DNA of 64,000 bases from Holophagales bacterium (GCA_009845425.1 VXZQ01000014.1:207783-271782), one strand, 5' to 3'; positions 3,247 to 46,597 are shown, numbered from the stretch's first letter. Program-made: numbers and translations. The notes: a model not told the origin generated them from the letters alone.

Positions 3247-4383
3247 ATGGATCCGCTGCACGAACAGATGAGGTCCTGGCGCCGGGACTTCCACCGACAC
3301 CCCGAGCTCGCGTTCGAGGAAGTAGAGACCAGCCGCAAGGTGGCGGCGCTGCTCGAGTCGTTCGACGGCATCGAGGTCCACCGCGGCCTCGCCGGCACGG
3401 GCGTCGTCGGCGTGCTGAAGTCCGGCTCGTCGGAGCGCAGCATTGCACTCCGCGCGGACATGGACGCGCTGCCGATCGAGGAGGAGAACGAGTTCGAGCA
3501 CCGCTCGCGGAACCCCGGCAAGATGCACGCCTGCGGCCACGACGGCCACACGGCGATGCTGCTCGGAGCGGCGAGGCACCTGAGCCGGAACCGGACCTTC
3601 GACGGCACGGTCTACTTCTTCTTCCAGCCCGCGGAGGAGAAGGACGGCGGCGCCCGCGTGATGATCGAGGAGGGCCTGTTCGAGCAGTTCCCTGCCGAGG
3701 AGGTCTACGGCGTTCACAACTACCCGGGAATGGAGGTCGGCAACTTCGGTCTGTGCGCCGGGCCGCTGATGGCCGCGATCGACGTGTTCGAGTTCGCGGT
3801 GACCAGTGCCGGCGGCCACGCTGCCTTCCCTCACGGCACGGTCGACCCGATCCCGATCGGGGCCGAGATCGTCCTCGCCCTGCAGACGATCGTGGCCCGC
3901 AACGTGGACCCGCTGCATAGCGCGGTGATCACGGTGGCCCGTGTCCATGGCGGTCACGCGGACAACGTGATCCCAAGCCGGGTCGTTCACGGCGGCTGCG
4001 TCCGGGCGTTTCTGCCCGAGGTGCAGAAGCTGGTCGAGCGGCGGATGCGCCAGATCGGCCGCGGCATCTGCACCGCCCACGGCGCCGGCTTCGAGTTTCA
4101 GTACCGCCACTACTACCCGGCCACGGTGAACCACGCCGACCAGACCGAGAAGGCGGCCAACGCCGCCCGCGAAGTCGGCAAGGAGGTCACCACCAGCCTC
4201 GCCCCCGTGATGGGTTCCGAAGACTTCGCCTACATGCTCCAGGAACGCCCCGGCGCCTTCATGTTCCTCGGCAACGGCGAAAGCGCCGGCCTGCACACCC
4301 CGCGCTACGACTTCAACGACGACGTCCTGCCCATCGGCATGCGCTACTGGACCACGCTCGTCGAGACGCAGTTGTCCGCGTAG
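3247..4383 (+). CDS. M20 family amidohydrolase (N-acyl-amino-acid / hippurate hydrolase-like)
   Basis: PELAFEE...HACGHDGH...M20D peptidase motifs. Start at the ATG at 3247 (MDPLHEQ); upstream ORF extension is low-complexity. Confidence 0.85.
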   Translation: MDPLHEQMRSWRRDFHRHPELAFEEVETSRKVAALLESFDGIEVHRGLAGTGVVGVLKSGSSERSIALRADMDALPIEEENEFEHRSRNPGKMHACGHDGHTAMLLGAARHLSRNRTFDGTVYFFFQPAEEKDGGARVMIEEGLFEQFPAEEVYGVHNYPGMEVGNFGLCAGPLMAAIDVFEFAVTSAGGHAAFPHGTVDPIPIGAEIVLALQTIVARNVDPLHSAVITVARVHGGHADNVIPSRVVHGGCVRAFLPEVQKLVERRMRQIGRGICTAHGAGFEFQYRHYYPATVNHADQTEKAANAAREVGKEVTTSLAPVMGSEDFAYMLQERPGAFMFLGNGESAGLHTPRYDFNDDVLPIGMRYWTTLVETQLSA

Positions 4384-4400
4384 CGTCGTCGGTATCACCC

Positions 4401-4582
4401 GCCCGGCACGGGGCCGCAGGGGGAGGGGTTCCCTGCGGCCGTTCGCGCTCGGTCGGATGATGGGCAGTGGGCGCTCACTTCACTCCGCTCGCTTCGGTTG
4501 GTCGGTGCTTGCCGTCAGGTCGCCGGGAGTCGCTCGCTGCGAGCCCGCAGGGCACCCCTCCCCCTGCGGCCCCGTGCCGGGC
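4401..4582. repeat. Large hairpin: 36-bp near-perfect inverted repeat (4401-4436 / 4547-4582) with a ~110-nt spacer
   Basis: gcccggcacggggccgcagggggaggggttccctgc at 4401-4436; its reverse complement gcagggcacccctccccctgcggccccgtgccgggc at 4547-4582 (35/36 match). Lies 18 bp downstream of the M20 gene stop. Confidence 0.8.
4435..4481. repeat. Left terminal inverted repeat (~47 bp) of the putative cassette
   Basis: gcggccgttcgcgctcggtcggatgatgggcagtgggcgctcacttc; its reverse complement is found at 7060-7106 with 2-3 mismatches. Confidence 0.8.
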
Positions 4583-4987
4583 TGGACCTCGTCGGGCTTC
4601 GCGCGCTCCTCTTGTGCTTGCGGTGCGGTGACCGCGATCCGGGCGCGGGTGGCTGTCTCTCGGTGGGATCCTTGTTCTCTCACGGACGCTTGACCACCGG
4701 CAATCCACTGACGGCCGGACACCTGCACGGTGGTCGGGTCACCTGCGGTGCGTTCTCGTGCGGACGACCCGCCTGCTGCGCCCGGGTGGCGCGGTCCCAG
4801 CGGGCTCGGTGCGAGCGGCGCTCGCCTCCCTTCAGAAACCAGAGTCCAACCGACGTGAGAGTCGCTCCGCAAGGGAATCGAAGAGCCTAGCGTCGTAGCG
4901 TCAGGAAGCTGGTAGAAACGGCTGTGCGGGTTCTTATGCCAAGCCAGCACACAGAGAACAGAAACGAGAACGGGGGAGGATGGCCGG

Positions 4988-5410
4988 ATGGTGAATCTAC
5001 TCAGAGAGCGGGGCTGGTTTCGAGACGTGGCTGCGGACAAGCTACTCCTCGAGACGGTTGAAGGCTACGGCATGGTGCTGGAAGCGAAGCTCGCCGACAT
5101 GGCCGAGGAGTACGCTGAGCTAGAGCCACTGGGGAACGCGGACGGTATGCTGCAGAGCTGGTGGGAGGGCGTTGAGGAGTTGATCGAAGCTGGCTTGGTC
5201 CGCAACAAGGCTCCCAAGGAGTATGCGTTGACACATGAGGGCCGAGTTCAACTCCACAGTCTTCGGGCTTCCGAGAAGCAGCAGAAGAGCTTGGAGCAGC
5301 AGCAAAGGAGCTTGGAACTTGGTCTGAAACGGCTAAGCGTGGCTCTCTGGGCTCTCGGCGCGAGTGCTCTCTTTGGGTTGCTAAACATCGCTTTACAGTG
5401 GATGGACTGA
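4988..5410 (+). CDS. Hypothetical protein, helical with C-terminal transmembrane anchor
   Basis: 140 aa. GGGGAGGA Shine-Dalgarno 7 nt upstream of ATG 4988. C-terminal hydrophobic helix LSVALWALGASALFGLLNIAL. Located in the low-GC segment. Confidence 0.55.
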   Translation: MVNLLRERGWFRDVAADKLLLETVEGYGMVLEAKLADMAEEYAELEPLGNADGMLQSWWEGVEELIEAGLVRNKAPKEYALTHEGRVQLHSLRASEKQQKSLEQQQRSLELGLKRLSVALWALGASALFGLLNIALQWMD

Positions 5411-5432
5411 ACGGTACGCGGGGATCCCCCGT

Positions 5433-5451
5433 CCGGCCCCGGAACGGGGCC
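5433..5451 (+). terminator. GC-rich stem-loop downstream of the 4988-5410 ORF
   Basis: ggcccc-ggaac-ggggcc (6-bp GC stem) about 25 nt after the stop codon. No U-tract, as is common in high-GC genomes. Confidence 0.25.
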
Positions 5452-5829
5452 AAAGGGACTCGGCTAGCTGACGAAGCAGGCGCGTCTTCGGGGTCAGCTC
5501 GCTCGTCTCGTCGAAGCCATGTGCAGTCCTCGCGTCCCTGAGCCTCCGATCCCTTGATGGATGCCGGGCCCGTTGTCACAGAGGCTGCGCTTGGTCTCCC
5601 ATGTTCGCCGCGTCCACGGAGCTGTTCTGGCTGTTGACCGAATCCTGTATGCGGCGGCGAGCCGACTCAGGGCTGCATGCCTGTGTGTGACGGCGACCGC
5701 AAAGCAGACCACGGGAAGCCCATAGCCAGATGACGATTCCCGGATGGCGCTATGATGCGTTGCCTCGCCGGCACGCCTAGCCCGGATGGCGAACCGCACT
5801 AGACACCGAATGCGCGTGGAGTAAGCACT

Positions 5830-6879
5830 ATGCCGCGTCTCTTCGTCCTCATGCCCTTTTCGCCGGACCTCGAGCCCGTCTATGAGCGCCTCTTCAAAGA
5901 GCCATTCGAGAAAGCTGGTTACGACGTGAGCAGGGCGAAGGACATCGACAGCCAGCGGAACATCCTTGAGGACATTATTGAGTCTGTACGGGATAGCGAT
6001 CTGATACTAGCGGACCTTACAGACTTGAATGCCAATGTGTTCTATGAACTAGGAATCGCACATGCCTTCGACAAGAATGTGGTTCTAGTCAGCCAAGAGA
6101 TAAGTAGCTTACCTTTCGATCTGCAATCCTACCGCGTCGTTCGCTACAGCACCAGCTTCACCGAGATGGAAGAAGCCGTCCAACACATGGAGGACCGTGC
6201 GCGGAAGATCATCTCCGGCGGGATGAAGTTCGCCAATCCAGTTGCGGACTTCGCGGACTCGGTGGCTTCACCTTTCGCGGAAGCGGAAGAGGAGGACGCT
6301 CCAACTGAAGAGGACGAGGACGAGCGTCGCGGCATTCTGGACTTTCAGGCTGACTTCCTAGAGAACGTGGAAACCCTCGGAGCCCTGGTTGGCGACGGCA
6401 CCAAGCGAATTGAGGGTATGAGCGAACGCGTTTCGGCTGCCAACGAACGCATCACGGGAGTCGAGTTCGGCCAGCCTAGTCGGCAGCGTCGGACGATTCG
6501 GGACCTGGGATTCTCCCTGGAGAAAGACGCGGCATGGTTCAAGGACTTCGGTAGCAGATACTACGATGTGCTGGCGGAAGTAGAAGATGCTGTCGTCGGA
6601 ATGTTCAGCACTAAGAGGCACCTTGATGGGGAGAGCCGGGAGGAGTTGATTCTATTCATAGATGTGACGGAGAAGACAGAAAGCCAACTCTCGGATGCAG
6701 CGGCCAATTTCCAGAGCCTGATAGCGGCGATTGACGGAGTGCCGAAGATCGAGCGCAGGTTTGACCGAGGCAGTCGTGCACTGGCAAGAGAGCTTGAGAC
6801 CTACATAGACAACATCGAGTTGTCGATTGCTGTCATAACGAGATCAAGAAACCTGGCCAAGAAGATGTTGGGTGACTAG
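5830..6879 (+). CDS. DNPH1 (Rcl) / nucleoside 2-deoxyribosyltransferase-like N-terminal domain fused to an acidic linker and a ~190-aa helical domain of unknown function; candidate nucleotide-targeting defense effector
   Basis: N-terminus ...LILADLTDLNANVFYELGIAHAFDKNVVLV...PFDL... parallels the DNPH1 core (VVAEVTQPSLGVGYELGRAVALGKPILCL) including the catalytic-type YELG Glu. Acidic linker EAEEEDAPTEEDEDE. Lowest GC in the window (~47%). Confidence 0.6.
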   Translation: MPRLFVLMPFSPDLEPVYERLFKEPFEKAGYDVSRAKDIDSQRNILEDIIESVRDSDLILADLTDLNANVFYELGIAHAFDKNVVLVSQEISSLPFDLQSYRVVRYSTSFTEMEEAVQHMEDRARKIISGGMKFANPVADFADSVASPFAEAEEEDAPTEEDEDERRGILDFQADFLENVETLGALVGDGTKRIEGMSERVSAANERITGVEFGQPSRQRRTIRDLGFSLEKDAAWFKDFGSRYYDVLAEVEDAVVGMFSTKRHLDGESREELILFIDVTEKTESQLSDAAANFQSLIAAIDGVPKIERRFDRGSRALARELETYIDNIELSIAVITRSRNLAKKMLGD

Positions 6880-7059
6880 GGACTGGCCCGAGCAGTCGGC
6901 TTGGGGCGGATTGGGAAGACCGGGTTCTTGTCGCCGGACGGGCCAGCCTGACTGTCTGAGACTGGTGTGTGTTGGGGGAGCAGTTTGGAGCGCTCCCTGG
7001 CCGTTGTGCGCCGAAGGTGCGTGCGATCTTCGCCACTTCGGCACACGCAGAGGAAGGAA

Positions 7060-7106
7060 GAAGTGAGCGCCCACTCCCCATCGTCCGACCGAGCGCGAAC
7101 GGCCGC
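7060..7106. repeat. Right terminal inverted repeat (~47 bp), reverse complement of 4435-4481
   Basis: gaagtgagcgcccactccccatcgtccgaccgagcgcgaacggccgc; followed (7107-7140) by a degenerate copy of the 36-bp hairpin repeat. Confidence 0.8.
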
Positions 7107-7169
7107 CTGGGACCGCGCCCCCCGGACTCTCGGCAGGCGGGTGCTACTACCGCCGCTGCGCCGTCGGTG

Positions 7170-8075
7170 CTACGCGCAGTTGCAGAGTTCGATGAAGAAG
7201 GCGCGGACGGTGTCGAGGAACTCGGGAGAGCTCAGGGTGGTCATGTGGTTGGCGCCTTCGATGACGTGGAGGCGGTGCTCCTTCATCACGTCGACCAGGG
7301 CGTCGGCGTTGGGCTTCAGGGGATCGTCGCTGCCAATGATGTTGAGGGTCGGCACCTTGTTGATGCGGAGGAGTTCGGCGTTCACGTCGAGGGCGGGCAT
7401 GCCGCGGACGACGGCTGCCAGGGCCATCTGGTCGTTCGCGGCGACCATCGCCTGGCCGATCGCCTGAACCTGTTCAGGGGTCGGCGGTTCCTCGCCGGGC
7501 CACAGGAACTCGACGAGAGGGCCGCCGCCCTTTCCCGCCTCGAGGGAGGCGGCCAGCGCGTCGAACATCGCGTCGTCGCGCAGTTCGGGGCTCGGCCAGC
7601 CGGCGCCGCCGACCACGGCGGACATGAGCCGGTCAGGTGCCAGGGCGACGAGCTTCATCGTGATGAAGCCACCCATCGAGTAGCCGACGACGTGGGCCTG
7701 CTGCAGCCGCAGATGATCGAGCAGGTCGACGACGTCCAGAGCCATCCGTTCGCCGTAGCTCGCGGGGTCGTGGGGCTTGCCGCTCATGCCGTGGCCGCGC
7801 TGGTCGACGGCGATGACCTGGAACTCCTCGGCCAGCCGGCCGATGATGCCGGCGGCGCCCCAGTTCGAGGCGGCGGTGCCGGTAATGCCGTGAAGCAGCA
7901 CGACCGGGTCGCCGCGGCCTTCGACGACGTAGTGGATCTCGACGCCGTCACTGGCCGTGAACGACCGGGTCGAGGCTTCGCCTTGCGCGTGAGCGCCGGC
8001 GAAGGCGACTGTGAGCACTAGCGCCGCCAGGACGGCAGCGAACATCGACCGCGGTTTCTTCGTATGGATCATCAT
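7170..8075 (-). CDS. Secreted alpha/beta hydrolase
   Basis: Signal peptide, HG oxyanion box (VVLLHG), nucleophile elbow GYSMGG. Start chosen at MMIHTKK (8075). Confidence 0.8.
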   Translation of the reverse strand: MMIHTKKPRSMFAAVLAALVLTVAFAGAHAQGEASTRSFTASDGVEIHYVVEGRGDPVVLLHGITGTAASNWGAAGIIGRLAEEFQVIAVDQRGHGMSGKPHDPASYGERMALDVVDLLDHLRLQQAHVVGYSMGGFITMKLVALAPDRLMSAVVGGAGWPSPELRDDAMFDALAASLEAGKGGGPLVEFLWPGEEPPTPEQVQAIGQAMVAANDQMALAAVVRGMPALDVNAELLRINKVPTLNIIGSDDPLKPNADALVDVMKEHRLHVIEGANHMTTLSSPEFLDTVRAFFIELCNCA

Positions 8076-26732: not shown

Positions 26733-28754
26733 TTGGCCGGCCTGACCAGAGGACTCCACGATCGCCCGGAGTCGTCTCCAACTCCGCCGCCGAAGGTCAT
26801 CGACCTGATGATCGACGCGGCCGTCCGCAATCTGCTGGGCCAGTGCCGGGATGACGGTCACTGGTGCGCGGAGCTCGAGGGCGACACGATTCTGGAGTCG
26901 GAGTACGTGCTGCTGCTCCACTTCCTGGGGCGCGGCGACGACCCGCGCGTCGCGGCGTGCTGCGGGCGGTTGCGCAGTCAACAGCAGCAGGGCGGCGGCT
27001 GGGCCATCTACCCGGACGGCCCGACCGACCCGAGCGTCTCGGTCAAGGCCTACCTGTGCCTGAAACTCGCCGGCGACGATCCTCAATCGCCGCGGATGGC
27101 CGATGCGCGCCGGGCGATCCTGCGGGCGGGCGGACTGCGCGCGTGCAACTCGTACACGAGGCTCTACCTGTCGATCTTCGGGCTGTGGACCTGGCGGCGG
27201 TCGCCCGCGGTGCCTCCGGAACTCATCCTGCTGCCGCGCTGGTTCTACTTCAACCTCCACGAGATGTCCTCCTGGACCCGGACGATCGTGGTGCCGCTGT
27301 CGGTGATCTGGGCCCTCAGGCCGAGCGTGCCGCTCGATGTGACGCTGGACGAACTTCAGGGGGATTCCAGGCCCGGACGCAAACGGACGACCGTCTACGA
27401 GTCGTTCTGGTCCTTCGTGTTCGCAGCCGTCAACGGCCTGATCAAGCTGGTGGAGGTCGTGGGCCCCGTACCCGGGTGGCGGCGCCCCGCCCTGAAGAAG
27501 GCGGAGGAGTGGCTGATTGCCCACGTCGAAGGCTCCGACGGTCTGGGTGCGATCTTCCCGGCGATGCTCAACACGGTCATCGCGCTTCGCTGCCTCGGCT
27601 ACGAGGAGAGTCATCCGCTGGTCCAGGGCCAACTGCGGGAACTCGAGCGGTTGGAGATCGAAGAGGCCGGAGAGATGCGGCTCCAGCCTTGCCTGTCGCC
27701 GGTCTGGGACACGGCGCTGTCGGTGGGCGCCCTGCTCGCGGCGGACATGGAAGGGGGCGAGGCGCCCATCCAGGATGCGCTGGCGTGGCTGCTCGAGCGT
27801 GAGGTCACGGTTCCCGGCGACTGGCGGGAGAAGAGCCTCCAGGAGGCGCCGGGTGGCTGGTGTTTCGAGTACCGGAACGATCTCTACCCCGACTGTGACG
27901 ACACGGCGGAAGTCCTGGTGTTGCTGGCCTCGGTCCGGGGCCGCACCGACGAGCTGGAGGCGCGGAGGCAGGCCGCGACGGCACGCGGGCAGCGCTGGCT
28001 ACTTGGTCTTCAGAACCCGGACGGAGGCTGGGCCTCGTTTGACCGCTGCTGCGACAAGGAGGTCCTGACCCTCATCCCCTTCGCGGACCACAACGCGATG
28101 ATCGATCCGAGCACACCCGACATTACCGCCCGGGTGATCAGCGCCCTGTTGGCTCATGGACACGATCCGCGCGATGAACCGGTCCGACGCGCGACGGACT
28201 ACCTGCTGCGCGAGCAGGAGAGGGATGGGAGCTGGCCGGGGCGCTGGGGCGCGAACGGCATCTACGGCACCTGGCTCGCCCTCTCCGCGCTGGCGCCACT
28301 TGCGGCACGCCCGGGCATCCGCGCAGGGGAACGTCTGAGCCGGGCATGCCGGCGCGGCCGGCGCTGGCTGCTTGCGGTGCAGAACGAGGACGGTGGTTGG
28401 GGGGAGTCGCTTCGCTCCTACGATGATCCCGACTTCAGGGGCCGCGGGCGCAGCACGGCTTCGCAGACCGCCTGGGCGATGATGGGTCTGATCGTGTCGC
28501 TCGAACCGCGGCCCTGGAGCGACGACGCGGCCCGGACCGTGGCGGCGCTGGACCGGGCAGTGGCCTTCCTCCAGGAGCGCCAGCGCGACGACGGTTCGTG
28601 GTACGACCGCGACTGGACCGGCGTAGGCTTCCCCGGCGTGTTCTACCTCCGCTACCACGGCTACGCGCAGTACTTCCCGCTCGAGGCGCTGGCTGCCTAC
28701 AGGCGACTGGCCGTGCCGGAGCCTGACGCGATGCCCGCGAACGGACCCTTCTGA
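26733..28754 (+). CDS. shc: Squalene-hopene cyclase
   Basis: QW repeats and the catalytic DxDDTA motif (YPDCDDTAEV). Collinear with A. acidocaldarius SHC. Start uncertain (TTG 26733 or downstream ATG 26808). Confidence 0.9.
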   Translation: MAGLTRGLHDRPESSPTPPPKVIDLMIDAAVRNLLGQCRDDGHWCAELEGDTILESEYVLLLHFLGRGDDPRVAACCGRLRSQQQQGGGWAIYPDGPTDPSVSVKAYLCLKLAGDDPQSPRMADARRAILRAGGLRACNSYTRLYLSIFGLWTWRRSPAVPPELILLPRWFYFNLHEMSSWTRTIVVPLSVIWALRPSVPLDVTLDELQGDSRPGRKRTTVYESFWSFVFAAVNGLIKLVEVVGPVPGWRRPALKKAEEWLIAHVEGSDGLGAIFPAMLNTVIALRCLGYEESHPLVQGQLRELERLEIEEAGEMRLQPCLSPVWDTALSVGALLAADMEGGEAPIQDALAWLLEREVTVPGDWREKSLQEAPGGWCFEYRNDLYPDCDDTAEVLVLLASVRGRTDELEARRQAATARGQRWLLGLQNPDGGWASFDRCCDKEVLTLIPFADHNAMIDPSTPDITARVISALLAHGHDPRDEPVRRATDYLLREQERDGSWPGRWGANGIYGTWLALSALAPLAARPGIRAGERLSRACRRGRRWLLAVQNEDGGWGESLRSYDDPDFRGRGRSTASQTAWAMMGLIVSLEPRPWSDDAARTVAALDRAVAFLQERQRDDGSWYDRDWTGVGFPGVFYLRYHGYAQYFPLEALAAYRRLAVPEPDAMPANGPF

Positions 28755-28776: not shown

Positions 28777-29778
28777 ATGCGAACACCGCTCCACATGGTG
28801 ACCGACAACCTGAGGCACCAGGCGAAGAACGCGCTCCTGGGCAGGCGCCGGTATCCGTTCGTGCTCATGCTCGAGCCGCTCTACACCTGCAACCTGGCCT
28901 GCCTGGGCTGCGCGGTGGAGAGGCACACGGGCAAGCTCAGGGACAGGCTGCCGGTTTCTGAGTGTCTCGACGCGGTGCGCGTGAGCGATGCTCCGGTCGT
29001 TTCGATCTGCGGCGGCGAGCCGACGATCTACCCCGAGCTCCCGGAGCTGATCTCCGGCATCATCGCCCGTCGGCGGCACATCTACCTCTGCACGAACGCC
29101 CTGCTCCTGGACACGAAGGTGTTCGATCGGGTGCCGCCGAACCGGCGGCTGACGCTGAACGTGCACCTCGACGGCATGCGCGAAACCCACGACTTCGTGT
29201 GCGCCCGCGAGGGCGTCTTCGACAAGGCGATCGAGATGATCCGCGCGGCGAAGGAGCGCGGCTACCACGTCACGACGAACACGACCGTGTTCAAGGAGAC
29301 GCGGATCGACGAGGTCGAGGAGCTGTGCCGGTTCCTGCGCGACCTCGACATCGACGGCATGCTGATCTCACCCGGCTACCAGTACGAGTCGGTGGACCGC
29401 GACATCTTTCTCACGCGCCAGGACACGGAGCGGAAGTTCCGGCGCATTCTCGAGATCGCGGACGAGTACAAGCTGACCTCGACCCCCATGTTCCTCGAGT
29501 TCGCGGCCGGGTTGAGGGACTACTCCTGCTCGCCGTGGAGCACCGTCACGAGAACGCCGCTCGGCTGGAAGGGGCCCTGCTACCTGATCGGCAAGGGCCA
29601 CTACGCGACCTACGAGGAGTTCTGGGAGCAGACGGACTGGGACTACTGGGAGTCGCGCCAGGATCCGCTGTGCACGAACTGCGCGATGCACTCGGGGTTC
29701 GAAGCGTCGGTGGTGCGCGAGGTCCGGAAGAGTCCGAAGGACGCGCTGCGCCTCGCCGCCTGGCACCTGTCGGGATGA
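28777..29778 (+). CDS. hpnH: Hopanoid biosynthesis radical SAM protein HpnH (adenosylhopane synthase)
   Basis: CNLACLGC radical-SAM CxxxCxxC. Highly conserved HpnH pattern. Immediately downstream of shc. Confidence 0.9.
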   Translation: MRTPLHMVTDNLRHQAKNALLGRRRYPFVLMLEPLYTCNLACLGCAVERHTGKLRDRLPVSECLDAVRVSDAPVVSICGGEPTIYPELPELISGIIARRRHIYLCTNALLLDTKVFDRVPPNRRLTLNVHLDGMRETHDFVCAREGVFDKAIEMIRAAKERGYHVTTNTTVFKETRIDEVEELCRFLRDLDIDGMLISPGYQYESVDRDIFLTRQDTERKFRRILEIADEYKLTSTPMFLEFAAGLRDYSCSPWSTVTRTPLGWKGPCYLIGKGHYATYEEFWEQTDWDYWESRQDPLCTNCAMHSGFEASVVREVRKSPKDALRLAAWHLSG

Positions 29779-29825: not shown

Positions 29826-30827
29826 GTGACGGTTCTCGTCACCGGCGGCACCGGGTTCGTCGGCGCGCACGTGGTTCGGGCGCTGCTCGCTCGCGGCGAG
29901 GACCGCGTGCGCTGCCTCGCGCGGCCGGGCGGAGACCGCTCCAACCTCGATGGTTGCGACGTGGAGATCGTCGAGGGCGACCTGCGGGATCCCGCGAGTC
30001 TCCGGGCAGCCTGCGCGGGTAGCGTCGAGGTCTACCACTGCGCCGCCGACTACCGGCTGTTCGTCCGCCGTCCGCGTGACATCTACGCCTCGAACGTCGA
30101 CGGCACCCGCCACCTGCTGGCCGCGGCGGCCGAGGCGGGAGCGAAGCGCATCGTCTACACGAGTTCGGTGGGCGCGCTCGGACTGGAACAGGGCGACCTT
30201 CCCGCGACCGAGACGACTCCCGTCAGCATCGCGGCGATGGTCGGGCACTACAAGCGCAGCAAGTACCTCGCCGAGCGCGCCGCCGTCGAGGCGGCCGCGG
30301 CCGGCGCTCCGGTCGTCATCGTGAATCCGTCGACACCGGTCGGTGAACTGGACGTCAAGCCGACGCCGACGGGCCGGATCATCGTCGACTTCCTGTCCCG
30401 GCGCATGCCGGCGTACGTCGACACCGGGCTCAACCTGATCGATGTGCGCGATGTCGCCCAAGGCCACCTGCTGGCCGCGGAGCACGGCCGCGTCGGCGAG
30501 AAGTACATTCTCGGGCACCGCAACGTCACCCTGGTCGAGATGCTGAGGATGCTGGCCGACATCACGGGGATGAAAGCGCCCCGCCTGCGGCTGCCGCACT
30601 GGCTGCCGGTCGGCGCCGCGGCTCTGGCGACCGGATGGGCGCGACTGGCCGGCGGCGAACCCCGCGTCCCGCTTGAGAGCGCGCGCATGGCGCGCCACAG
30701 GATGTTCTTCGATGCCGGCAAGGCGGTCAGGGAACTCGGCCTGGTCCAGAGTTCGGTCCGGGAGGCGCTCGGGCGCGCGGTGCGGTGGTTCGAGGAGAAC
30801 GGCTACGTGAATGGGCCGTGCCGGTGA
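29826..30827 (+). CDS. hpnA: Hopanoid-associated NAD-dependent epimerase/dehydratase (HpnA-like)
   Basis: VLVTGGTGFVGAHVV Rossmann motif. SDR-extended family. Position in the hpn cluster. Confidence 0.75.
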   Translation: MTVLVTGGTGFVGAHVVRALLARGEDRVRCLARPGGDRSNLDGCDVEIVEGDLRDPASLRAACAGSVEVYHCAADYRLFVRRPRDIYASNVDGTRHLLAAAAEAGAKRIVYTSSVGALGLEQGDLPATETTPVSIAAMVGHYKRSKYLAERAAVEAAAAGAPVVIVNPSTPVGELDVKPTPTGRIIVDFLSRRMPAYVDTGLNLIDVRDVAQGHLLAAEHGRVGEKYILGHRNVTLVEMLRMLADITGMKAPRLRLPHWLPVGAAALATGWARLAGGEPRVPLESARMARHRMFFDAGKAVRELGLVQSSVREALGRAVRWFEENGYVNGPCR

Positions 30828-39175: not shown

Positions 39176-40264
39176 ATGGGCCAGCTACCGAAGTCCGTGA
39201 CCATCACGGACGACACGATGAGGGAAGGTCTGCAGATTGAGAGCGCGGACATTCCGGTCGAGGACAAGCTGCGTCTGCTCGACGCGCTGGGCGAGACCGG
39301 AGCCAAGGTGATTTCGATCGGTTCCTACGCGCACCCCAAGTGGACGCCGCAGATGGCCTGCATCGACGAGATCGCCGAGCGCTTCGTGCCGAAGCCGGGC
39401 GTGCGCTACACGGCCGCAATCTTCAACAAGATAGGGTTCGACCGCGCCGACCGCTGGTACCCGAAGCTCGACGTCCGGCAGCGAAGGTTCGGCACCCACG
39501 TGGAGCTTTGCGACACCTTCGCCCGCCGCAACTACAACGCGACCCAGGCGCAGCAGATCGAGCGCATCCCGGGGGTGATCGAACAGGCTCGCGCCTGCGG
39601 GGCCGAGACGGGCGCGGTGGCGATCGGCAACCCGTTCGGATCGAACTTCGAGGGGGCTTTCACGCTCGAGCAGCGAATGGACCTGCTGGCGCTGATGATC
39701 GACCGCTGGCATGAAGCCGGCTTCCGGGTCACCCGCTGCGCGATCATCGAGGCGATGGGCTGGAACATGCCGCACACCGTGCGCGAGACGCTGCTCGCGA
39801 TCCGGGAGCGCTGGCCCGAGATCACGGACTTCCACTGCCACCTGCACAACACCCGCGGGGCGGCGATGGTCAGCTACTACGAGGCTCTCAAGCTGGGCGT
39901 GCGCGAGTTCGACACCTCGATCGGCGGCATGGGGGGTTGCCCCTACTGCGGCAACGGCCGCGCGGCGGGCCATGTGCCGACGGAGGACTTCGTCGATTTC
40001 TGCCACGAGCTGGGGATCGAGACCGGCTACAAGCTCGACAAGCTGATCGAGGCGGCACAGATCGCGGAGGAGGTGGTGGGCCACCCGCTCTGGGGCCACG
40101 TCTCCAAGGCCGGGCCGCGGCCGCGCGGCGCCGGCGATCTTTACCCGCGGCAGATGCCCTTCGTCGAGACGCTCGACGAGGCCTCCCACTTCCGCAAGGG
40201 ACCGCCGGTCTACGCCGGCCAGCGGTCTCCGTGGCGGCCCGACTCGGCGCTGTACCAGGCATGA
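39176..40264 (+). CDS. DRE-TIM metallolyase (HMG-CoA lyase / pyruvate carboxyltransferase family)
   Basis: TIM-barrel lyase motifs (TMREGLQ ... HCHLHNTRGAA). Family-level call only. Confidence 0.7.
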   Translation: MGQLPKSVTITDDTMREGLQIESADIPVEDKLRLLDALGETGAKVISIGSYAHPKWTPQMACIDEIAERFVPKPGVRYTAAIFNKIGFDRADRWYPKLDVRQRRFGTHVELCDTFARRNYNATQAQQIERIPGVIEQARACGAETGAVAIGNPFGSNFEGAFTLEQRMDLLALMIDRWHEAGFRVTRCAIIEAMGWNMPHTVRETLLAIRERWPEITDFHCHLHNTRGAAMVSYYEALKLGVREFDTSIGGMGGCPYCGNGRAAGHVPTEDFVDFCHELGIETGYKLDKLIEAAQIAEEVVGHPLWGHVSKAGPRPRGAGDLYPRQMPFVETLDEASHFRKGPPVYAGQRSPWRPDSALYQA

Positions 40265-42036
40265 CCGCCGCGGCAAAGAACCCGGGCGCGGGCGTTCGCT
40301 ACGAAGCGGACGGGCGGCCGCCGACAGCTCTCGCCGCGACGATGGGTCTGCAGTACGCGACCCTCTGTGTCGCCGGCATCGTGCTGACGCCGGCGATCAT
40401 CGTCCGTGCCGCCGGGGGCAGCGACGAGTACCTGGCGTGGGCGGTGTTCGCGGCGATCTTCGTGAGCGGCATCGCCACGATCCTGCAGGCGGTGCGCCTG
40501 TGGCGGATCGGCGCGGGCTACATCCTGCTCATGGGCACTTCGGGGGCGTTCATCGCGGTCAGCATCGCCGCCCTGAGCCAGGGCGGTCCCATGCTCCTCG
40601 CCAAGCTGGTCATCGTCTCATCGTTGTTCCAGTTCCTGCTTTCCGCCCGGCTCCTGCTGCTGCGGAGGTTGTTCACGACGACGGTCACGGGCACCGTGAT
40701 CATGCTGATCTCGGTCAGCGTGATGCCGATCATGTTCAACCAGTTAACCCTGGTTCCCGACGATGCGTCCCGTGCCGCTGCTCCGATCACGTTCGTCGTG
40801 GCCATCGCGGTCATGGCTGGGTTCGGCCTGCGGGCCAGGGGGATCGGAAGGCTGTGGGCGCCGGTCGCCGGCGTCGTGGCGGGTTCGATCGTTGCCGTGC
40901 CTCTTGGGCTTTACGATTTCGAGCAGGTGGCTGCGGCGGCGTGGGTCGGTGCCCCGGCCGGCGGCTGGCCCGGCTTCGACCTGTCCTTCGGGCCGGCCTT
41001 CTGGGCGTTGCTGCCGGGCTTCGTCATCGTGACGTTGATCGGCGCGGTCGAGACGATCGGTGATGCCGTGGGTATCCAGCGCGTCTCCTGGCGGACGCCG
41101 CGGGCGCCTGACTACCGGGCCGTGCAGGGCGCCGTCGCCGCCGATGGACTCGGCAACCTGCTCTCCGGTATCGCCGGCACCGTGCCGAACACGACGTACT
41201 CGAGCAGCATCTCGGTCACGGAACTCACCGGGGTGGCCTCGCGCCGGGTGGGGATGTGGATCGGGATCATCTTCCTCGGTCTGGCTTTCCTGCCCAAGGC
41301 GCTCGCCCTGATCCTCGCGATTCCCGGTCCGGTCGTGGGAGCCTACGGGTTGGTGCTGATCGCCGTCCTGTTCGTGCTCGGGGCCCGCATTGCCGGTCAC
41401 GGGGGCATCGACTACCGGAAGGCCCTCGTGATCGGCGTTTCGTTCTGGATCGGCGTCGGCTTCGAAAACGACCTGATCTTCAGCGACCAGCTCGGCGGTT
41501 GGGTGGCCTCGATCCTGGGCAACGGCATGACCGCCGGCGGCCTGACCGCCATCGGCCTGACCGCGTTTCTCGAATCGACCGGTCCGCGCCGCCGGCGGCT
41601 CGAGGTCGAGGTTACGCCCGGATCGGCCTCACGGATCGGCGGCTTTCTCCGGACCCTGGCGGAACGGGCGCGGTGGACGCCCGAGGCCTGCGATCGTCTC
41701 TGGTCGGCGGGCGAAGAGGCGCTGCTCAGCCTCGCCGGACTCGACGAGGAGGAGGGCGGCCGGAAGCGCAGCCTGCTCGTGGTCGCAAGGGTCGACCGTC
41801 AGACGGCCGAACTCGAGTTCATCGCGGCGCCCGGTGGAAGCAACATCGAGGACCGCCTGGTGGTCATGGCGCCCGATGCTCCCGTCCCCATCGAGAACGA
41901 GTTGTCGCTGCGGCTGCTGCGCCACGTGTCGACTTCGGTGCAGCACCAGCAGTACCACGATACGGATGTCCTCACGGTCATCGTCAGCAGCGACAGCCAG
42001 GAACCGACGGGTCAGGTGGACACGGCGGGAATCTAG
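40261..42036 (+). CDS. NCS2 (xanthine/uracil) family permease with ~120-aa C-terminal degenerate GHKL anti-sigma-factor-kinase-like domain
   Basis: GLQY(H) motif and ~12-14 TM helices of NCS2. The C-terminal soluble domain aligns by eye to the SpoIIAB/RsbW fold, but the N-box and G-boxes are degenerate. ATGA overlap with the upstream lyase gene. Confidence 0.7.
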   Translation: MTAAAKNPGAGVRYEADGRPPTALAATMGLQYATLCVAGIVLTPAIIVRAAGGSDEYLAWAVFAAIFVSGIATILQAVRLWRIGAGYILLMGTSGAFIAVSIAALSQGGPMLLAKLVIVSSLFQFLLSARLLLLRRLFTTTVTGTVIMLISVSVMPIMFNQLTLVPDDASRAAAPITFVVAIAVMAGFGLRARGIGRLWAPVAGVVAGSIVAVPLGLYDFEQVAAAAWVGAPAGGWPGFDLSFGPAFWALLPGFVIVTLIGAVETIGDAVGIQRVSWRTPRAPDYRAVQGAVAADGLGNLLSGIAGTVPNTTYSSSISVTELTGVASRRVGMWIGIIFLGLAFLPKALALILAIPGPVVGAYGLVLIAVLFVLGARIAGHGGIDYRKALVIGVSFWIGVGFENDLIFSDQLGGWVASILGNGMTAGGLTAIGLTAFLESTGPRRRRLEVEVTPGSASRIGGFLRTLAERARWTPEACDRLWSAGEEALLSLAGLDEEEGGRKRSLLVVARVDRQTAELEFIAAPGGSNIEDRLVVMAPDAPVPIENELSLRLLRHVSTSVQHQQYHDTDVLTVIVSSDSQEPTGQVDTAGI

Positions 42037-42112
42037 GAGAGCGCGTCCTTCCTGTAGGATTCCGCGGCGGATATGACCTCTCCGTGAAACGAACTGCGAG
42101 CGCCATAGCCAC

Positions 42113-42790
42113 GTGAGTGAGAGCCCCCACCTGACCTTCGTGGAGGAGATCCTGCTTCTTCTCCTGGACGACGATTCCGGTGCGATGAAGCGGGTCGCGC
42201 CCAACGTGATGGAGCTGCTGCTCGCCGGCGCGATCCTGATGGACCTCGCGCTGCGTGGACGCCTGGATTGCGACCTCCAGCGACTCGTCGTCGTCGATCC
42301 GACGCCCGTGGGCGAGGAGATACTGGACGGCCCGTTGGCGGAGATCGCGGAGGCCGCCGACGAGGCCGACGCCCGCACCTGGGTGGTGCGTCTCTCGGCC
42401 CGCAGCAAGCAGGTCCAGGAGGCGGCCCTGGCGCGCCTGGTCGAGCGTGGCATCCTCCGGGTCGAGGATCGGAGCTTCCTGTGGGTGTTCGGCAGCCGCC
42501 GCTATCCGATGGTCGACGACCGGGAAGAGCGGGAAGTCAAGCTGCGGATCCTCGACGTGCTCCTGAGCGACCGGATTCCGGCGCCCAGGGACGTCGCCCT
42601 CATTTGCCTGGCCGATGCGTCGAACGCCTTCCAGGTCATCCTGAGCGCGCAGGAACTGCGTCACGCCGCGGCCCGGATCGAGTTGGTGCGCGGCTTCGAT
42701 CTGATCGGTCAGGCGATGGGCCGGGCGATTCAGAAGTCCGTTCAGGACATTGCGGCCGCGACTGCGACGGCGCATCATCCCTTCTACTGA
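42113..42790 (+). CDS. GPP34/GOLPH3 family protein
   Basis: Characteristic N-terminus LTFVEEILLLLLDD...G and overall GPP34 pattern. Confidence 0.7.
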   Translation: MSESPHLTFVEEILLLLLDDDSGAMKRVAPNVMELLLAGAILMDLALRGRLDCDLQRLVVVDPTPVGEEILDGPLAEIAEAADEADARTWVVRLSARSKQVQEAALARLVERGILRVEDRSFLWVFGSRRYPMVDDREEREVKLRILDVLLSDRIPAPRDVALICLADASNAFQVILSAQELRHAAARIELVRGFDLIGQAMGRAIQKSVQDIAAATATAHHPFY

Positions 42791-42819
42791 GTGCGAACAA
42801 GACGCAAAGAGGTGTGTAC

Positions 42820-43191
42820 GTGATCGAGAGCATCAAGATCGGGAAGTCGGCAATCGGGGGCGAGACGGTTGGCGACGTAACCGTCTGGGTGCCGGAAGGG
42901 CGGGTCGACGCCTCCAGTGCTCCGGACCTGGAGCAGGCAATGACGTCCGAGATCGCGGAAGGCGGAGAGGCAGTCGTCCTCGATCTGAGCCGCACCCGCT
43001 ACATGAGCAGCGCCGGCCTCCGCGTCGTACTCGTCGTGGCTCGCCAACTGCAGGCGCGCAAGGGGAAGTTCGCCGTCTGCGGCCTGAACGACGAAGTGAA
43101 GGAGCTCTTCGAGGTTTCCGGCTTCAGCCTGATCGTGGGCATCGAGGCGGACCGCGACGCCGCGGTCGCCGCCGTCCAGCAGTCCGGCTGA
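42820..43191 (+). CDS. STAS-domain anti-sigma factor antagonist (SpoIIAA/RsbV-like)
   Basis: VLDLSRTRYMSSAGLRVVLV contains the conserved phosphorylatable Ser motif (DxS...SSxGL). AAAGAGG Shine-Dalgarno before GTG 42820. Confidence 0.75.
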   Translation: MIESIKIGKSAIGGETVGDVTVWVPEGRVDASSAPDLEQAMTSEIAEGGEAVVLDLSRTRYMSSAGLRVVLVVARQLQARKGKFAVCGLNDEVKELFEVSGFSLIVGIEADRDAAVAAVQQSG

Positions 43192-43197
43192 CCTTCG

Positions 43198-44532
43198 CTA
43201 CAGCGTCCAGCCGTCCCGGTAGGCCGGCTCGATGTACTCCCGCGGGACCTCGACGCCGTTCGTCACCTTCAGCTTCTTCGGATTCCAGACGATCTCCTGC
43301 TGCGTGCGAACCGCCAGGTTGCCGAGCAGCGCGGTCTCGGTCATCGGCCCTGCGTGATCGGCGAAGTTGGAGCCGTCGGGGTTCGTCGTACCGGCCTTGA
43401 TCGCGTCGATCCACTGCTTGTAGTGCCCTTCGGTCCGTTCGTAGACCTGGGGCAGCGGGTTCTTCGTGATCTTCTCGTGCAGCTTTGAGGGGTAGATCGT
43501 GGGCCTGCCGGCGTAGATGTCGGCGACGATCACGCCCTCGGTGCCCACGAAGAGCTGACCGCTGTTGCGTGGCGGCCACTTGCCTTCCCACACCTTGGGC
43601 ATCGCCGGCGTGAGGTTTCCGTCGCGCCAGACGACGGTCATCTTCGGCCGGTTGCCTCGAGCCGGATACTCGAACGTGATCCGCGTGGCGGCGGGAGCCG
43701 ACTCCTTGAACAGCGGCGTCGATTCGGCATGGACCGACGACGGGTCCCGCAGGTCGAAGATCCAGAACGCCGCGTCCATCGCATGGCAGGCGATGTCGCC
43801 GATGGCGCCGGTGCCGAAGTCCCACCAGCCGCGCCAGGCGAAGGGGTGGTAGTACTCGGAGTGGTAGGGGCGTTCCGGCGCCGGGCCGAGCCACAGGTCC
43901 CACTTGACATGGTCGGGCACCTCGTGGACTTCCTTGGGGCGCGGTATCGCCTGCGGCCAGATCGGCCGGTTGGTCCAGTACTCGACGCGGTTCACCTCGC
44001 CGATCACGCCACCCTCGATCCACTCGCGGATGAGGCGGGTGCCTTCGGCGGCGTGGCCCTGGTTGCCCATCTGGGTCGCCGTGCCGGCCTTGCGTGCCGC
44101 CTTGCCGACCATCCGCGCCTCTCCGATCGTGCGCGTCAGGGGCTTCTGCGTGAAGACGTGGAGGCCGCGCTCCAGAGCCGCAACGGTGATCGCGGCGTGC
44201 GTGTGGTCGGCGGTCGAGACCAGCACCGCGTCCAGGTCGCTGTGGGCGTCCAGCAGCTCCCGGTAGTCGTGGTAGCGGGCCGCGTCCGGGTGGGCGTTCA
44301 TCGTCTCCTCGGCGCGCTTCCAGTCGATGTCGCAGAGGGCGACGATGTTCTCGCTGGCGACGCCGGCGACGTCGCTGCGGCCCTTGCCGCCGGCGCCGAT
44401 GGCCGCGATGTTCAGCCGGTCGCTGGGGGCCTCCTCGCCGCGTCCGAGGACGTGGCGGGGGACGATCATCCAGCCGGCGCCAGCGGCGGCAGCGCCGAGC
44501 ACGCTGCGACGGCTCAGGTCTTGTTCGGGCAT
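43198..44532 (-). CDS. Gfo/Idh/MocA family oxidoreductase with Tat signal peptide
   Basis: Twin-arginine RRSVLGAAAAGAG, then Rossmann NIAAIGAGGKG. Confidence 0.8.
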   Translation of the reverse strand: MPEQDLSRRSVLGAAAAGAGWMIVPRHVLGRGEEAPSDRLNIAAIGAGGKGRSDVAGVASENIVALCDIDWKRAEETMNAHPDAARYHDYRELLDAHSDLDAVLVSTADHTHAAITVAALERGLHVFTQKPLTRTIGEARMVGKAARKAGTATQMGNQGHAAEGTRLIREWIEGGVIGEVNRVEYWTNRPIWPQAIPRPKEVHEVPDHVKWDLWLGPAPERPYHSEYYHPFAWRGWWDFGTGAIGDIACHAMDAAFWIFDLRDPSSVHAESTPLFKESAPAATRITFEYPARGNRPKMTVVWRDGNLTPAMPKVWEGKWPPRNSGQLFVGTEGVIVADIYAGRPTIYPSKLHEKITKNPLPQVYERTEGHYKQWIDAIKAGTTNPDGSNFADHAGPMTETALLGNLAVRTQQEIVWNPKKLKVTNGVEVPREYIEPAYRDGWTL

Positions 44533-44611
44533 GAGGAAGTGCCTTTCGCTTTGGTGGTGTTCGAGTGTGCGTTAGGTTAGCGCACTCGTGACGAACGCGA
44601 AGGTCAGTTGG

Positions 44612-46597
44612 ATGTGCGTGTTTGCGGCGGCGCTGGTCGGTTTCGTCGCCGGCGCCGCCGGGGCCGAGACCGGCGAGCAGGGTCGCTCCGTCTACGGCGA
44701 GTGGCGGCATCACGGCGGCGACCACGCCTCGAGCCGCTACTCGCCGCTGACCCAGATCGACGGTTCGAACTTCAGCCGGCTCGAGGTCGCCTGGCGCTGG
44801 CGCACAGCGGACCACGAGGTGCCGCTGGACGTGCTTCCGGGCTACGACACGGGGTTCTATCGCTCCGTTCCCTTGATGATCGGCGGCCGCCTGTTCGCAC
44901 CGACCAGCCTGGGCCAGGTCGCCCTGCTCGACCCGGCGACTGGCGAGCAGGAATGGGTCTACAACCCGAAGACCTGGGAGCGCGGCGGCACCACGATGCG
45001 GCCGGTCGGCGCTCGCGGCATCGAGTACTGGTCGGACGGCGAGAAAGAGCGCCTGTTCGTCGCCACGATCGGCCGCCAGCTCGTCTCGATCGACGCCGCC
45101 ACCGGACTGGCCGACCGCGCGTTCGGCGAGGATGGCGTGGTCGACCTGGCGCAGGATCTGGGGCCGGGCGACTACGCGATCCGCCACGTCACGCACGGCG
45201 CGCCGCCGATCGTCGTCGGCACCAGCGTGATCGTCGGCTCGAAGATCTTCGACTACTCGATCAGGAGCGACGCACCGCCCGGCCATGTGCGTGCCTACGA
45301 CGTCCACACGGGCGAGTTCAAGTGGCGCTTCAACACGATTCCCCGGGACGACGAGTACGGCGTCGAGACCTGGGAGAACGAGTCCTGGCGCACGGCCGGC
45401 AACGCGAATGTGTGGACGTCGATGAGCGCGGACCACGAACTGGGATACGTCTACCTGCCGACCAGCACGCCGTCGAACGACTACTACGGGGCCGACCGGC
45501 CGGGCGACAACCTGTTCGCCGAGAGCCTGGTCTGCGTCGACGCGGAGACGGGCGAACGCATTTGGCACTTCCAGACCGTCCGCCACGGCATCTGGGACTA
45601 CGACATCGCTTCGGCCCCGAACCTGCTCGACATCGTCGTCGACGGCAAGCTGATCAAGGCCGTCGCGCAAGTCTCGAAGACCGGCTTCACGTACGTGTTC
45701 GACCGCGCCACCGGCGAGCCGGTGTGGCCGATCGAGGACCGGCCGGTGAATCACAAGTCGACGGTGCCGGGCGAGAAGCTGTCAGAGACGCAGCCGTTCC
45801 CGACGAAGCCACCTGCCTTCGAGCGGCAGGGCGTCAGCGAGGATGACCTGATCGACTGGACGCCGGAACTGCGCGAAGAGGCACTGAAGATCGCGGAGAA
45901 GCTGGTGCTCGCGCCCATGTTCCCGCCCCTGATCGTCAAGGGTGAGGGCGGCAAGGAGGGCGTGATGGTCGTCCCGGGGGCCGCCGGTGGCGCGAACCAC
46001 CCCGGAGCGTCCGTCGACCCGAGGACCGCTGTGCTCTTCGTCGAGTCGCAGAACCGGCCCACCGGGATGTCGCTGATCGAGCCGGATGCGGCGCGCCGTC
46101 CGGACTGGCGGTACGTGATCGACTACGTCGACACGGGTGGGCCACAGGGCCTGCCCCTGACGAAGCCGCCGTACCGGACGATTACCGCGATCGACCTGAA
46201 TCGTGGCGAGCACCTCTGGCGCATCCCTGTCGGTCCGGGCCCGAAGAACCATCCGGCCATCGCTCACCTGAACCTCGGCGACATGGGCACGATCTACTTC
46301 GGTATGCCGGCGGACGGCGGTCTGCTCGTCACCCGCACGCTCCTGATCGGCTTCGTGGCCCTGCCCGACGAGGACAATCCCCGCACCAGCAGCGGCGGGC
46401 TCCTGCGCGCCTACGACAAGGCGACAGGCGAACTGCTCGCCGAAGTGAGAACGGACGTCTGGCTGCACGGCCCGCCGATGACCTACATGCATGAGGGCCG
46501 GCAGTACATCGTCATCGCCGGGGGCGGCGCCCGCAATCGCCGGATCCCCGATGAGTTGATCGCCTTTGCGTTACCGGAGTCCCCGACCGATGCTTAA
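44612..46597 (+). CDS. PQQ-dependent dehydrogenase (paralog of 21753-23819), secreted
   Basis: Same signature as the first copy (GEWRHHGGDHASSRYSPLTQI...LEVAWRW). Start at ATG 44612 after the signal-peptide Met. Confidence 0.85.
   Translation: MCVFAAALVGFVAGAAGAETGEQGRSVYGEWRHHGGDHASSRYSPLTQIDGSNFSRLEVAWRWRTADHEVPLDVLPGYDTGFYRSVPLMIGGRLFAPTSLGQVALLDPATGEQEWVYNPKTWERGGTTMRPVGARGIEYWSDGEKERLFVATIGRQLVSIDAATGLADRAFGEDGVVDLAQDLGPGDYAIRHVTHGAPPIVVGTSVIVGSKIFDYSIRSDAPPGHVRAYDVHTGEFKWRFNTIPRDDEYGVETWENESWRTAGNANVWTSMSADHELGYVYLPTSTPSNDYYGADRPGDNLFAESLVCVDAETGERIWHFQTVRHGIWDYDIASAPNLLDIVVDGKLIKAVAQVSKTGFTYVFDRATGEPVWPIEDRPVNHKSTVPGEKLSETQPFPTKPPAFERQGVSEDDLIDWTPELREEALKIAEKLVLAPMFPPLIVKGEGGKEGVMVVPGAAGGANHPGASVDPRTAVLFVESQNRPTGMSLIEPDAARRPDWRYVIDYVDTGGPQGLPLTKPPYRTITAIDLNRGEHLWRIPVGPGPKNHPAIAHLNLGDMGTIYFGMPADGGLLVTRTLLIGFVALPDEDNPRTSSGGLLRAYDKATGELLAEVRTDVWLHGPPMTYMHEGRQYIVIAGGGARNRRIPDELIAFALPESPTDA

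Follow-up and report, generated by a model that had tools for sequence, protein, structure and literature searches.

A non-canonical NCS2/NAT permease with a C-terminal RsbW/SpoIIAB-like domain lacking ATP-binding residues, encoded beside GPP34 and STAS genes in a Holophagales genome

The locus considered here raises the question of what a domain resembling the anti-sigma kinases of bacterial partner switching does at the end of a membrane transporter. It lies in a 64,000-nucleotide stretch of DNA (hereafter the window, meaning the whole stretch analysed) from a Holophagales bacterium (GCA_009845425.1, VXZQ01000014.1:207783-271782), where positions 39176-43191 hold four plus-strand genes, encoding an HMGL-like lyase, an NCS2 permease, a GPP34 protein and a STAS protein, all four placed correctly in the first-pass annotation, which had likened the arrangement to a partner-switching module wired to a transporter. 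The permease was found to run into a predicted RsbW/SpoIIAB-like domain without the residues for ATP binding and, judged from sequence, the chances are evenly balanced that the unphosphorylated STAS protein, possibly with GPP34, would regulate the transporter by docking on this tethered pseudo-kinase. The features of the permease and the STAS protein are the following (lengths in amino acids, aa):

40261..42036, plus strand: non-canonical NCS2/NAT permease with a predicted pseudo-RsbW domain, 591 aa (Pfam, AlphaFold2 and Protein Data Bank matches)
40261..41580, plus strand: transmembrane 7+7 inverted-repeat domain, residues 1-440 (PF00860 at residues 26-400; helices to 440)
41590..41988, plus strand: predicted GHKL domain of the RsbW/SpoIIAB type at the C-terminus (residues 444-576), lacking the ATP-binding residues
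41713..41730, plus strand: N-box remnant EEALLS, E485-S490 (both Glu kept, the Mg-binding Asn replaced by Ser)
41905..41967, plus strand: family motif SLRLLRHVSTSVQHQQYHDTD, S549-D569, standing in place of the G2 box helix and the next hairpin
42820..43191, plus strand: single-domain STAS protein of the anti-sigma factor antagonist type, 123 aa (PF01740, E 5.6e-17)
43009..43011, plus strand: Ser64 codon in YMSSAGLR, aligned with SpoIIAA S58 and RsbV S56

The first-pass annotation had the permease continuing for ~120 aa past its last transmembrane helix; the extension is indeed present, and its length is ~150 aa, the last helix ending at residue 440 in the AlphaFold2 (AF2) model. In this full-length model (predicted local distance difference test, pLDDT, 88.9; predicted template modelling score, pTM, 0.86), the last transmembrane helix, 422-440, is followed by a three-residue link and by beta1 at 444-450, the folded domain spans residues 444-576, and the tail 583-591 is disordered. 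Pfam assigned Xan_ur_permease to residues 26-400 only, with no match in residues 440-591 at E <=1, and the family PF13581 (HATPase_c_2) was matched by 19 of 56 aligned homologues (best E 4.1e-6), the window protein itself being unmatched. Modelled on the homologue alignment, the C-terminal domain shows the order beta-alpha-alpha-beta-beta-alpha-beta-beta (pLDDT 81, pTM 0.75), a Bergerat alpha/beta fold nearest to the anti-sigma kinases. The first 19 Foldseek matches of this model in the Protein Data Bank (PDB) were all anti-sigma kinases (UsfX, RsbW, SpoIIAB), the best being UsfX, the anti-sigma F factor of M. tuberculosis, and therefore the assignment of the modelled domain to the RsbW/SpoIIAB branch of GHKL domains is considered correct and specific. 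The profile of the domain gave only chance matches among PDB sequences (E >0.2), and its family aligned collinearly with RsbW and SpoIIAB in hhalign at a non-significant E of 0.13, with the beta2 and beta3 strands mis-registered; the box and residue mapping given below was taken from MAFFT alignments, not from hhalign. The anti-sigma-kinase-like domain of the HATPase_c_2 branch proposed at first pass is borne out by Foldseek, by the PF13581 matches of the homologues and by the box alignments, and the confident RsbW/SpoIIAB-like AF2 model is neither a disordered tail nor an unrelated fold.

For the ATP site, the boxes of 66 such C-terminal domains were compared, in RsbW numbering, with those of 41 true HATPase_c_2 kinases encoded beside related STAS genes, in which N53, D84, G114 and G116 are kept in 40-41 of 41. 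The N-box Asn (N53), present in all 41 kinases, is replaced in the domains by T, S, L or I, with Thr or Ser in 63/66 and Ser490 in the window; the G1 Asp (D84) and the G2 glycine G114 are without an alignable equivalent; and the other G2 glycine, G116, is Ser in 64/66, Ser549 in the window protein. The ATP-binding boxes are degenerate, as had been noted earlier, and the loss of the N-box Asn, the G1 Asp and the G2 Gly leaves the domain unable to bind ATP-Mg as GHKL proteins do.

Other positions of the domain are strongly conserved, E485 and E486 being invariant (66/66) and R551 being Arg in 65/66. In the RsbV-RsbW complex, as its crystal structure shows, the RsbW residues D42, S48, E49 and Y118 form hydrogen bonds with RsbV, and E49 contacts the acceptor Ser56 of RsbV (PMC7340262). 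These four residues align with R479, E485, E486 and R551, each fixed in 65-66 of the 66 domains, and such conservation would be compatible with a retained STAS-docking face. The region of the family motif SLRLLRH..SV.HQQYHDTD, which is invariant or nearly so in the family alignment, is the best conserved stretch, with 55% mean pairwise identity vs 37% in the transmembrane domain.

The neighbouring STAS protein is an antagonist with a serine of the phosphorylatable type: it scores 69.8 bits against TIGR00377 (anti-sigma factor antagonist; cut-off 53.45), and its Ser64, in YMSSAGLR, aligns at the position of SpoIIAA Ser58 and RsbV Ser56, which agrees with the phospho-acceptor motif recognized at first pass. 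The RsbV numbering agrees with that of PMC7340262. Residues S63, S64, A65, G66, L67 and R68 are invariant in the STAS alignment, and the gene has a GTG start preceded by AAAGAGG.

The fusion of permease and GHKL domain has been found far beyond the window. A HMMER scan of 1.84 billion representatives (clusters at 50% identity) returned 989 clusters at E <=0.001 and 709 at E <=1e-10, the weaker matches possibly including permeases without the C-terminal domain, as the query profile took in the last transmembrane helices; intact members are 567-599 aa long and end in the domain, and none of the family clusters carries a source-given protein name. A search with residues 440-591 gave 80 relatives, all of them C-terminal permease pieces; a reading of the short matches as stand-alone domains was rejected, since they are pieces of permease genes that arose by frameshifts (long-read assemblies) or internal starts. 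At least 587 matching loci were found in the GTDB genomes, and the 80 best of them were kept, with a bias to relatives of the query; the transmembrane and C-terminal domains are contiguous in 80/80, and the search for the fusion across genomes, suggested at first pass, has found it in many phyla, the kept loci coming from Acidobacteriota, Gamma- and Alphaproteobacteria, Binatia, Latescibacterota, Nitrospirota, Nitrospinota, Gemmatimonadota, Dehalococcoidia and others. Across these 80 loci, of at least 9 phyla, identity is 45-57% for the C-terminal domain vs 45-66% for the transmembrane domain. Tandem copies of the permease gene occur in the loci L041, L054, L058 and L079, and L062 and L078 are two loci of one contig; such genomes with two copies, in tandem or at separate sites, indicate paralogue expansion. 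One open reading frame (ORF) of 246 aa (P0061, L166 1927-2667) joins a short fragment of DctM (TRAP transporter) to the C-terminal domain on a 3.9-kb contig, next to a transposase-like gene; most likely this is what a rearrangement left behind rather than another transporter fusion.

The window proteins are 98-100% identical to those of L001, a Holophagales/Thermoanaerobaculia metagenome-assembled genome (MAG) with the isolate name SB0667_bin_1, and isolate names of this type belong to symbiont MAGs of the sponge Ircinia ramosa (PMC11706023). Isolate names of a published sponge MAG set were found in 10/80 loci, and this, in a list biased to query relatives, suggests that the fusion is enriched in symbionts of sponges and corals or exchanged between them; a family of receiver-type transporters would apparently be common in such symbionts. 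The searched literature gave nothing relevant on an NCS2-anti-sigma fusion or on transporters under partner switching, and we found no earlier account of an NCS2-RsbW-like fusion in it.

The neighbourhoods of the fusion gene were compared after splitting the locus set into 18 close relatives and 62 distant loci, with neighbours sought within 8 kb by iterated hidden Markov model (HMM) searches. All 18 close relatives carry the lyase, GPP34 and STAS genes, and among these loci synteny is uninformative. In 4/62 distant loci, namely L021 (Binatia), L038 (Nitrospirales), and L058 and L079 (Rhodospirillales), a STAS gene was found near the fusion gene, in each case of one subfamily, Y[IM]SSAGLR, and directly 3' of the permease gene or within ~1 kb. 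Conservation of the STAS neighbour in orthologous loci, on which the earlier proposal had been made to depend, is weak: it holds in these four and otherwise in close relatives only. The Rhodospirillales loci L058 (3694-13771) and L079 (3644-13380) contain two tandem fusion genes followed by STAS, GPP34, an Amt ammonium transporter, another STAS and a glutamine synthetase of type III, a layout which hints at a link to nitrogen assimilation.

Two loci place the fusion, or what may be a divergent form of it, beside full modules. L038 (6675-14455), in a Nitrospirales MAG, contains the fusion gene, a HATPase_c_2 kinase on the minus strand with all boxes kept, STAS and REC-SpoIIE, followed by a Peripla_BP_6 periplasmic binding protein and a HAMP-HisKA-HATPase_c sensor histidine kinase, together possibly a complete sensory chain ending at the transporter. 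L116 contains, on one strand, an NCS2 permease (26% identical), STAS, a HATPase_c_2 kinase and a dCache-HAMP-SpoIIE phosphatase, and its permease has a 139-aa tail which aligns collinearly with the C-terminal domain of the window protein. These complete kinase/STAS/phosphatase sets give independent support for a partner-switching link.

In the mechanism proposed, an elevator-type transporter of the NCS2/NAT fold would pass from its last transmembrane helix straight into a dead RsbW/SpoIIAB-type domain that would keep the STAS-docking face of RsbW. The three-residue link after transmembrane helix 14, with the pTM of the full-length model, points to a rigid tether and was counted in favour of docking. 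NAT transporters, such as UapA, are dimeric through their gate domains. RsbW dimerises via beta1 and alpha1 (PMC7340262), and the C-terminal domain may dimerise through the same elements under the gate-domain dimer, like RsbW and the SLC26 STAS domains, so placed that STAS, by the geometry we infer, would bind the two outer sides of the domain dimer, below the mobile core domains. The unphosphorylated neighbour STAS would dock there, be neither phosphorylated nor released, and change the transport activity. Its phosphorylation would depend on a true RsbW-type kinase together with a PP2C phosphatase, adjacent in L038 and L116 and presumably elsewhere or absent in the window's genome, with GPP34 as an alternative partner or output of the same module. 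The partner-switching reading made at first pass is thus supported in part: the fold, the dead ATP site and the phospho-serine hold, and the modules of L038 and L116 add to it, whereas the linkage to STAS proved exceptional in the family. The wider proposal, that a widespread undescribed transporter family uses a dead RsbW as a built-in partner-switching receiver, with STAS and GPP34 switching an elevator-type transporter post-translationally, is put forward tentatively and has somewhat less than an even chance of being right.

Several observations weigh against docking of a STAS partner. In 58/62 distant loci there is no STAS gene within 8 kb, and these 58/62 and three further contigs show no STAS, GPP34, kinase or PP2C gene within 7-8 kb. 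In most cases, any partner must come from a gene at another site, unless the domain works alone. In the reciprocal scan of 80 STAS homologues, ~55/80 adjoin a true kinase, as expected, and a canonical C-terminal domain was found beside 0/80, save for the divergent tail of L116, which is weakly related to the family when compared with it alone (hhalign E 0.079) and from which a homologue search gave no match. The cognate kinase or PP2C phosphatase that the first-pass annotation thought to look for was not found in the 64-kb window, nor within 8 kb in the close relatives, with small home-built profiles, and Pfam on ten neighbour proteins (32.6-52.5 kb only) gave no sigma factor, kinase or PP2C. 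No consistent compensatory changes link R479 of the domain with the STAS residues at RsbV R84/R87; a charge swap of R479 with a STAS Glu at these positions, considered as a candidate, occurs in the window pair and fails in L021 and L058, and the true kinases vary at the position of R479. Finally, the conserved Glu pair and Arg residues are at the same time part of the lining of the former nucleotide pocket, and they may serve a ligand rather than STAS.

In the main rival explanation, the same data can be read, with rather low probability, as showing a dead GHKL domain that is an autonomous transporter module for dimerisation, stability or small-ligand sensing, STAS and GPP34 being unrelated to it. 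Such a module would be expected to stand alone, as the fusion gene does in most distant loci and in the three contigs; when every neighbour in the 62 distant loci was clustered, no other recurrent partner gene emerged; the domain is conserved about like the transmembrane domain (39% vs 37% mean pairwise identity), and the polar residues E485, E486, R551 and H562 at the former nucleotide pocket are conserved. However, STAS is found 3' of the gene in three other lineages and a full kinase and phosphatase set occurs twice, whereas only ~0.5 chance STAS cases would be expected per 62 loci by our own estimate from ~10 STAS per 4000 genes, made with no computed control, and the nearest structural relatives of the domain all bind STAS-type partners.

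The transporter domain bears on another explanation. Its membership in NCS2/NAT follows from PF00860 (E 3.1e-51) and from its top structural matches in the PDB, UapA, SVCT1 and UraA, after which comes the SLC26 family, with SLC26Dg, prestin and SULTR among the matches. The canonical NAT motifs are Gln-His in transmembrane segment (TMS) 1, ExxG[DHG] in TMS8 and [QEP]-N-x-G-x-x-x-x-T-[GRK] in TMS10 (PMC5972032). The window permease has QY instead of QH in TMS1, keeps ETIGD in TMS8 and has SSISVTELTG in TMS10 (region 41170-41238); the [QEP]-N pair of TMS10 was found in 0/36 full-length family members, and the TMS8 Glu is swapped for Q, K, R, G, H, D or N in many of the 36. With these residues, and with NCBIfam pbuX and ncs2 scores under the cut-offs, the label of a "nucleobase" permease given at first pass fails, and the sequence indicates a non-canonical NAT branch whose substrate is probably not a nucleobase; the substrate range probably differs between paralogues. 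A substrate site highly variable across the family and a conserved cytoplasmic domain are what would be expected of many sensors with one output. By this token, and with UsfX, an anti-sigma F factor, as the best structural match, the permease could be a transceptor, the signal running from transporter to transcription according to the transport state, and its domain a membrane-bound anti-sigma factor or decoy, holding a sigma factor or titrating STAS from a soluble RsbW. Pfam scans of neighbours in the window, L021, L038, L058 and L116 gave no sigma factor gene, and this explanation is regarded as improbable.

The third gene of the cluster offers one more candidate for the partner of the domain:

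42113..42790, plus strand: GPP34 (GOLPH3-like) protein, short single-domain form, 225 aa (PF05719, E 1.6e-46)

Its Pfam score is 159.4 bits vs a gathering cut-off of 29.1, over profile positions 3-199 of 201 (full-length). According to a proposal to which we give slightly less credence still, the domain holds GPP34, from which it is displaced by STAS, so that GPP34 would stand in the place of a sigma factor in a true partner switch. The gene adjoins the fusion gene in 4/62 distant loci (L021, L058, L079 and L075) and in the window's clade; it directly follows STAS in 5/80 STAS loci of the reciprocal scan (L118, L130, L142, L107, L109), in three of which, the metagenome contigs L118 1-1450, L130 2-1378 and L142 790-2330, a divergent HATPase_c_2 kinase completes the triad; and in the GPP34 locus L083 a set of STAS, REC-SpoIIE and HATPase_c_2 lies 4 kb off. 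Four other GPP34 homologues (53-59% identity), by contrast, stand in unrelated contexts, with no general linkage to STAS or the permease. In the published view GPP34, reported as enriched among sponge symbionts from 16 phyla and missing from free-living relatives, is a proposed host-interaction factor, whose typical neighbour is a cytochrome P450, with STAS, kinases and permeases unmentioned (PMC11706023). A part for GPP34 in a circuit of partner switching is so far no more than a lead.

That the domain is still an active Ser kinase acting on STAS with an unusual ATP site, as the kept N-box Glu pair and the intact overall fold might suggest, is hardly credible, as 66/66 domains lack the Mg-binding Asn, the adenine-binding Asp and both G2 glycines, all of which 40-41/41 true kinases keep.

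The remaining gene of the cluster stands first in it:

39176..40264, plus strand: HMGL-like (DRE-TIM) lyase, 362 aa (Pfam PF00682, E 6.6e-22)

The lyase scores 178 bits against the NCBIfam HMG-CoA lyase subfamily, under the cut-off of 246, and its TGA overlaps the permease ATG as ATGA. It was counted in the cluster at first pass, and this did not hold beyond the 18 closely related loci, in which alone the lyase is kept. The four genes lie on the same strand with no terminator-like site on the plus strand within the cluster, and therefore they look like one operon. The 5' neighbour is a divergent PMT/GT39-type glycosyltransferase gene, and the 3' neighbour, 43198-44532, is a convergent Gfo/Idh/MocA oxidoreductase gene whose product has an N-terminus like that of Tat substrates; further 3' is a PQQ-dependent dehydrogenase (44588-46597; Pfam PQQ, E 1e-178), and this dehydrogenase and the oxidoreductase are conserved among close relatives only. 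An Rfam scan of the whole window gave no riboswitch and no other RNA. Elsewhere in the window, positions 4001-8000 have a GC content of 0.62-0.64 vs ~0.69, and the ORFs 4988-5410 and 5830-6879 have a third-position GC of 0.66-0.71 vs 0.85-0.94 in most genes; this low-GC stretch may be an acquired segment. By eye, three ORFs (26733-28754, 28777-29778 and 29826-30827) look as if they encode a squalene-hopene cyclase, a radical-SAM protein and an NAD-dependent epimerase, and such a set would form a cluster of the hopanoid type.

The purpose of the STAS domain of SLC26/SulP transporters has been a long-standing question since its homology was noticed, and a sister transporter family with the other half of the pair, in some loci beside a full kinase/STAS/phosphatase set, makes direct partner-switching control of transporters testable. 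If the wider proposal of a built-in receiver is true, the permease would be the mirror image of the SulP-STAS fusion, an old functional tie would join the 7+7 inverted-repeat transporters with the RsbW/RsbV pair, and bacterial GPP34 would gain an intracellular regulatory role, instead of or besides host mimicry. A large non-canonical NAT family, of ~990 clusters at 50% identity, has been defined, and GPP34, a published marker of sponge symbiosis, is tied by gene context to STAS/RsbW signalling.

Compared with the known systems, the window GPP34 is like that of the sponge symbionts, of the short single-domain form and from a sponge-symbiont Acidobacteriota genome; unlike the typically P450-flanked published genes (PMC11706023), it is located beside STAS and a transporter-borne RsbW-like domain. 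With UapA, XanQ, UraA and PbuX the permease shares PF00860 (E 3e-51), the best structural matches and the ExxGD of TMS8, whereas these transporters have no GHKL tail, and the window protein has QY vs QH and a TMS10 without the Gln/Glu/Pro-Asn and Gly. In SiaB-SiaC, partner switching operates without a sigma factor, while the presumed target in the window is a dead kinase domain within a secondary transporter; further non-sigma systems of this kind are MlaB-MlaF, HsbA and SypE-SypA. From RsbW, SpoIIAB and UsfX, of which UsfX acts without kinase activity, the window domain differs in its C-terminal fusion to a 14-helix transporter, in the absence of the N-box Asn, G1 Asp and G2 Gly from all members of the fusion family, which have the SLRLLRH..SV.HQQYHDTD motif of their own, and in having no sigma factor gene nearby among the Pfam-scanned neighbours. 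A further analogy, drawn already at first pass and upheld structurally by the SLC26 proteins among the transmembrane matches and by a C-terminal domain beginning three residues after the last helix, is with SulP/SLC26, which have the same 7+7 inverted-repeat fold and, like the window permease, a cytoplasmic domain of the partner-switching type directly after transmembrane helix 14; the SulP/SLC26 transporters carry STAS, whereas the window permease, a member of NCS2/NAT, carries the counterpart of STAS from the anti-sigma side.

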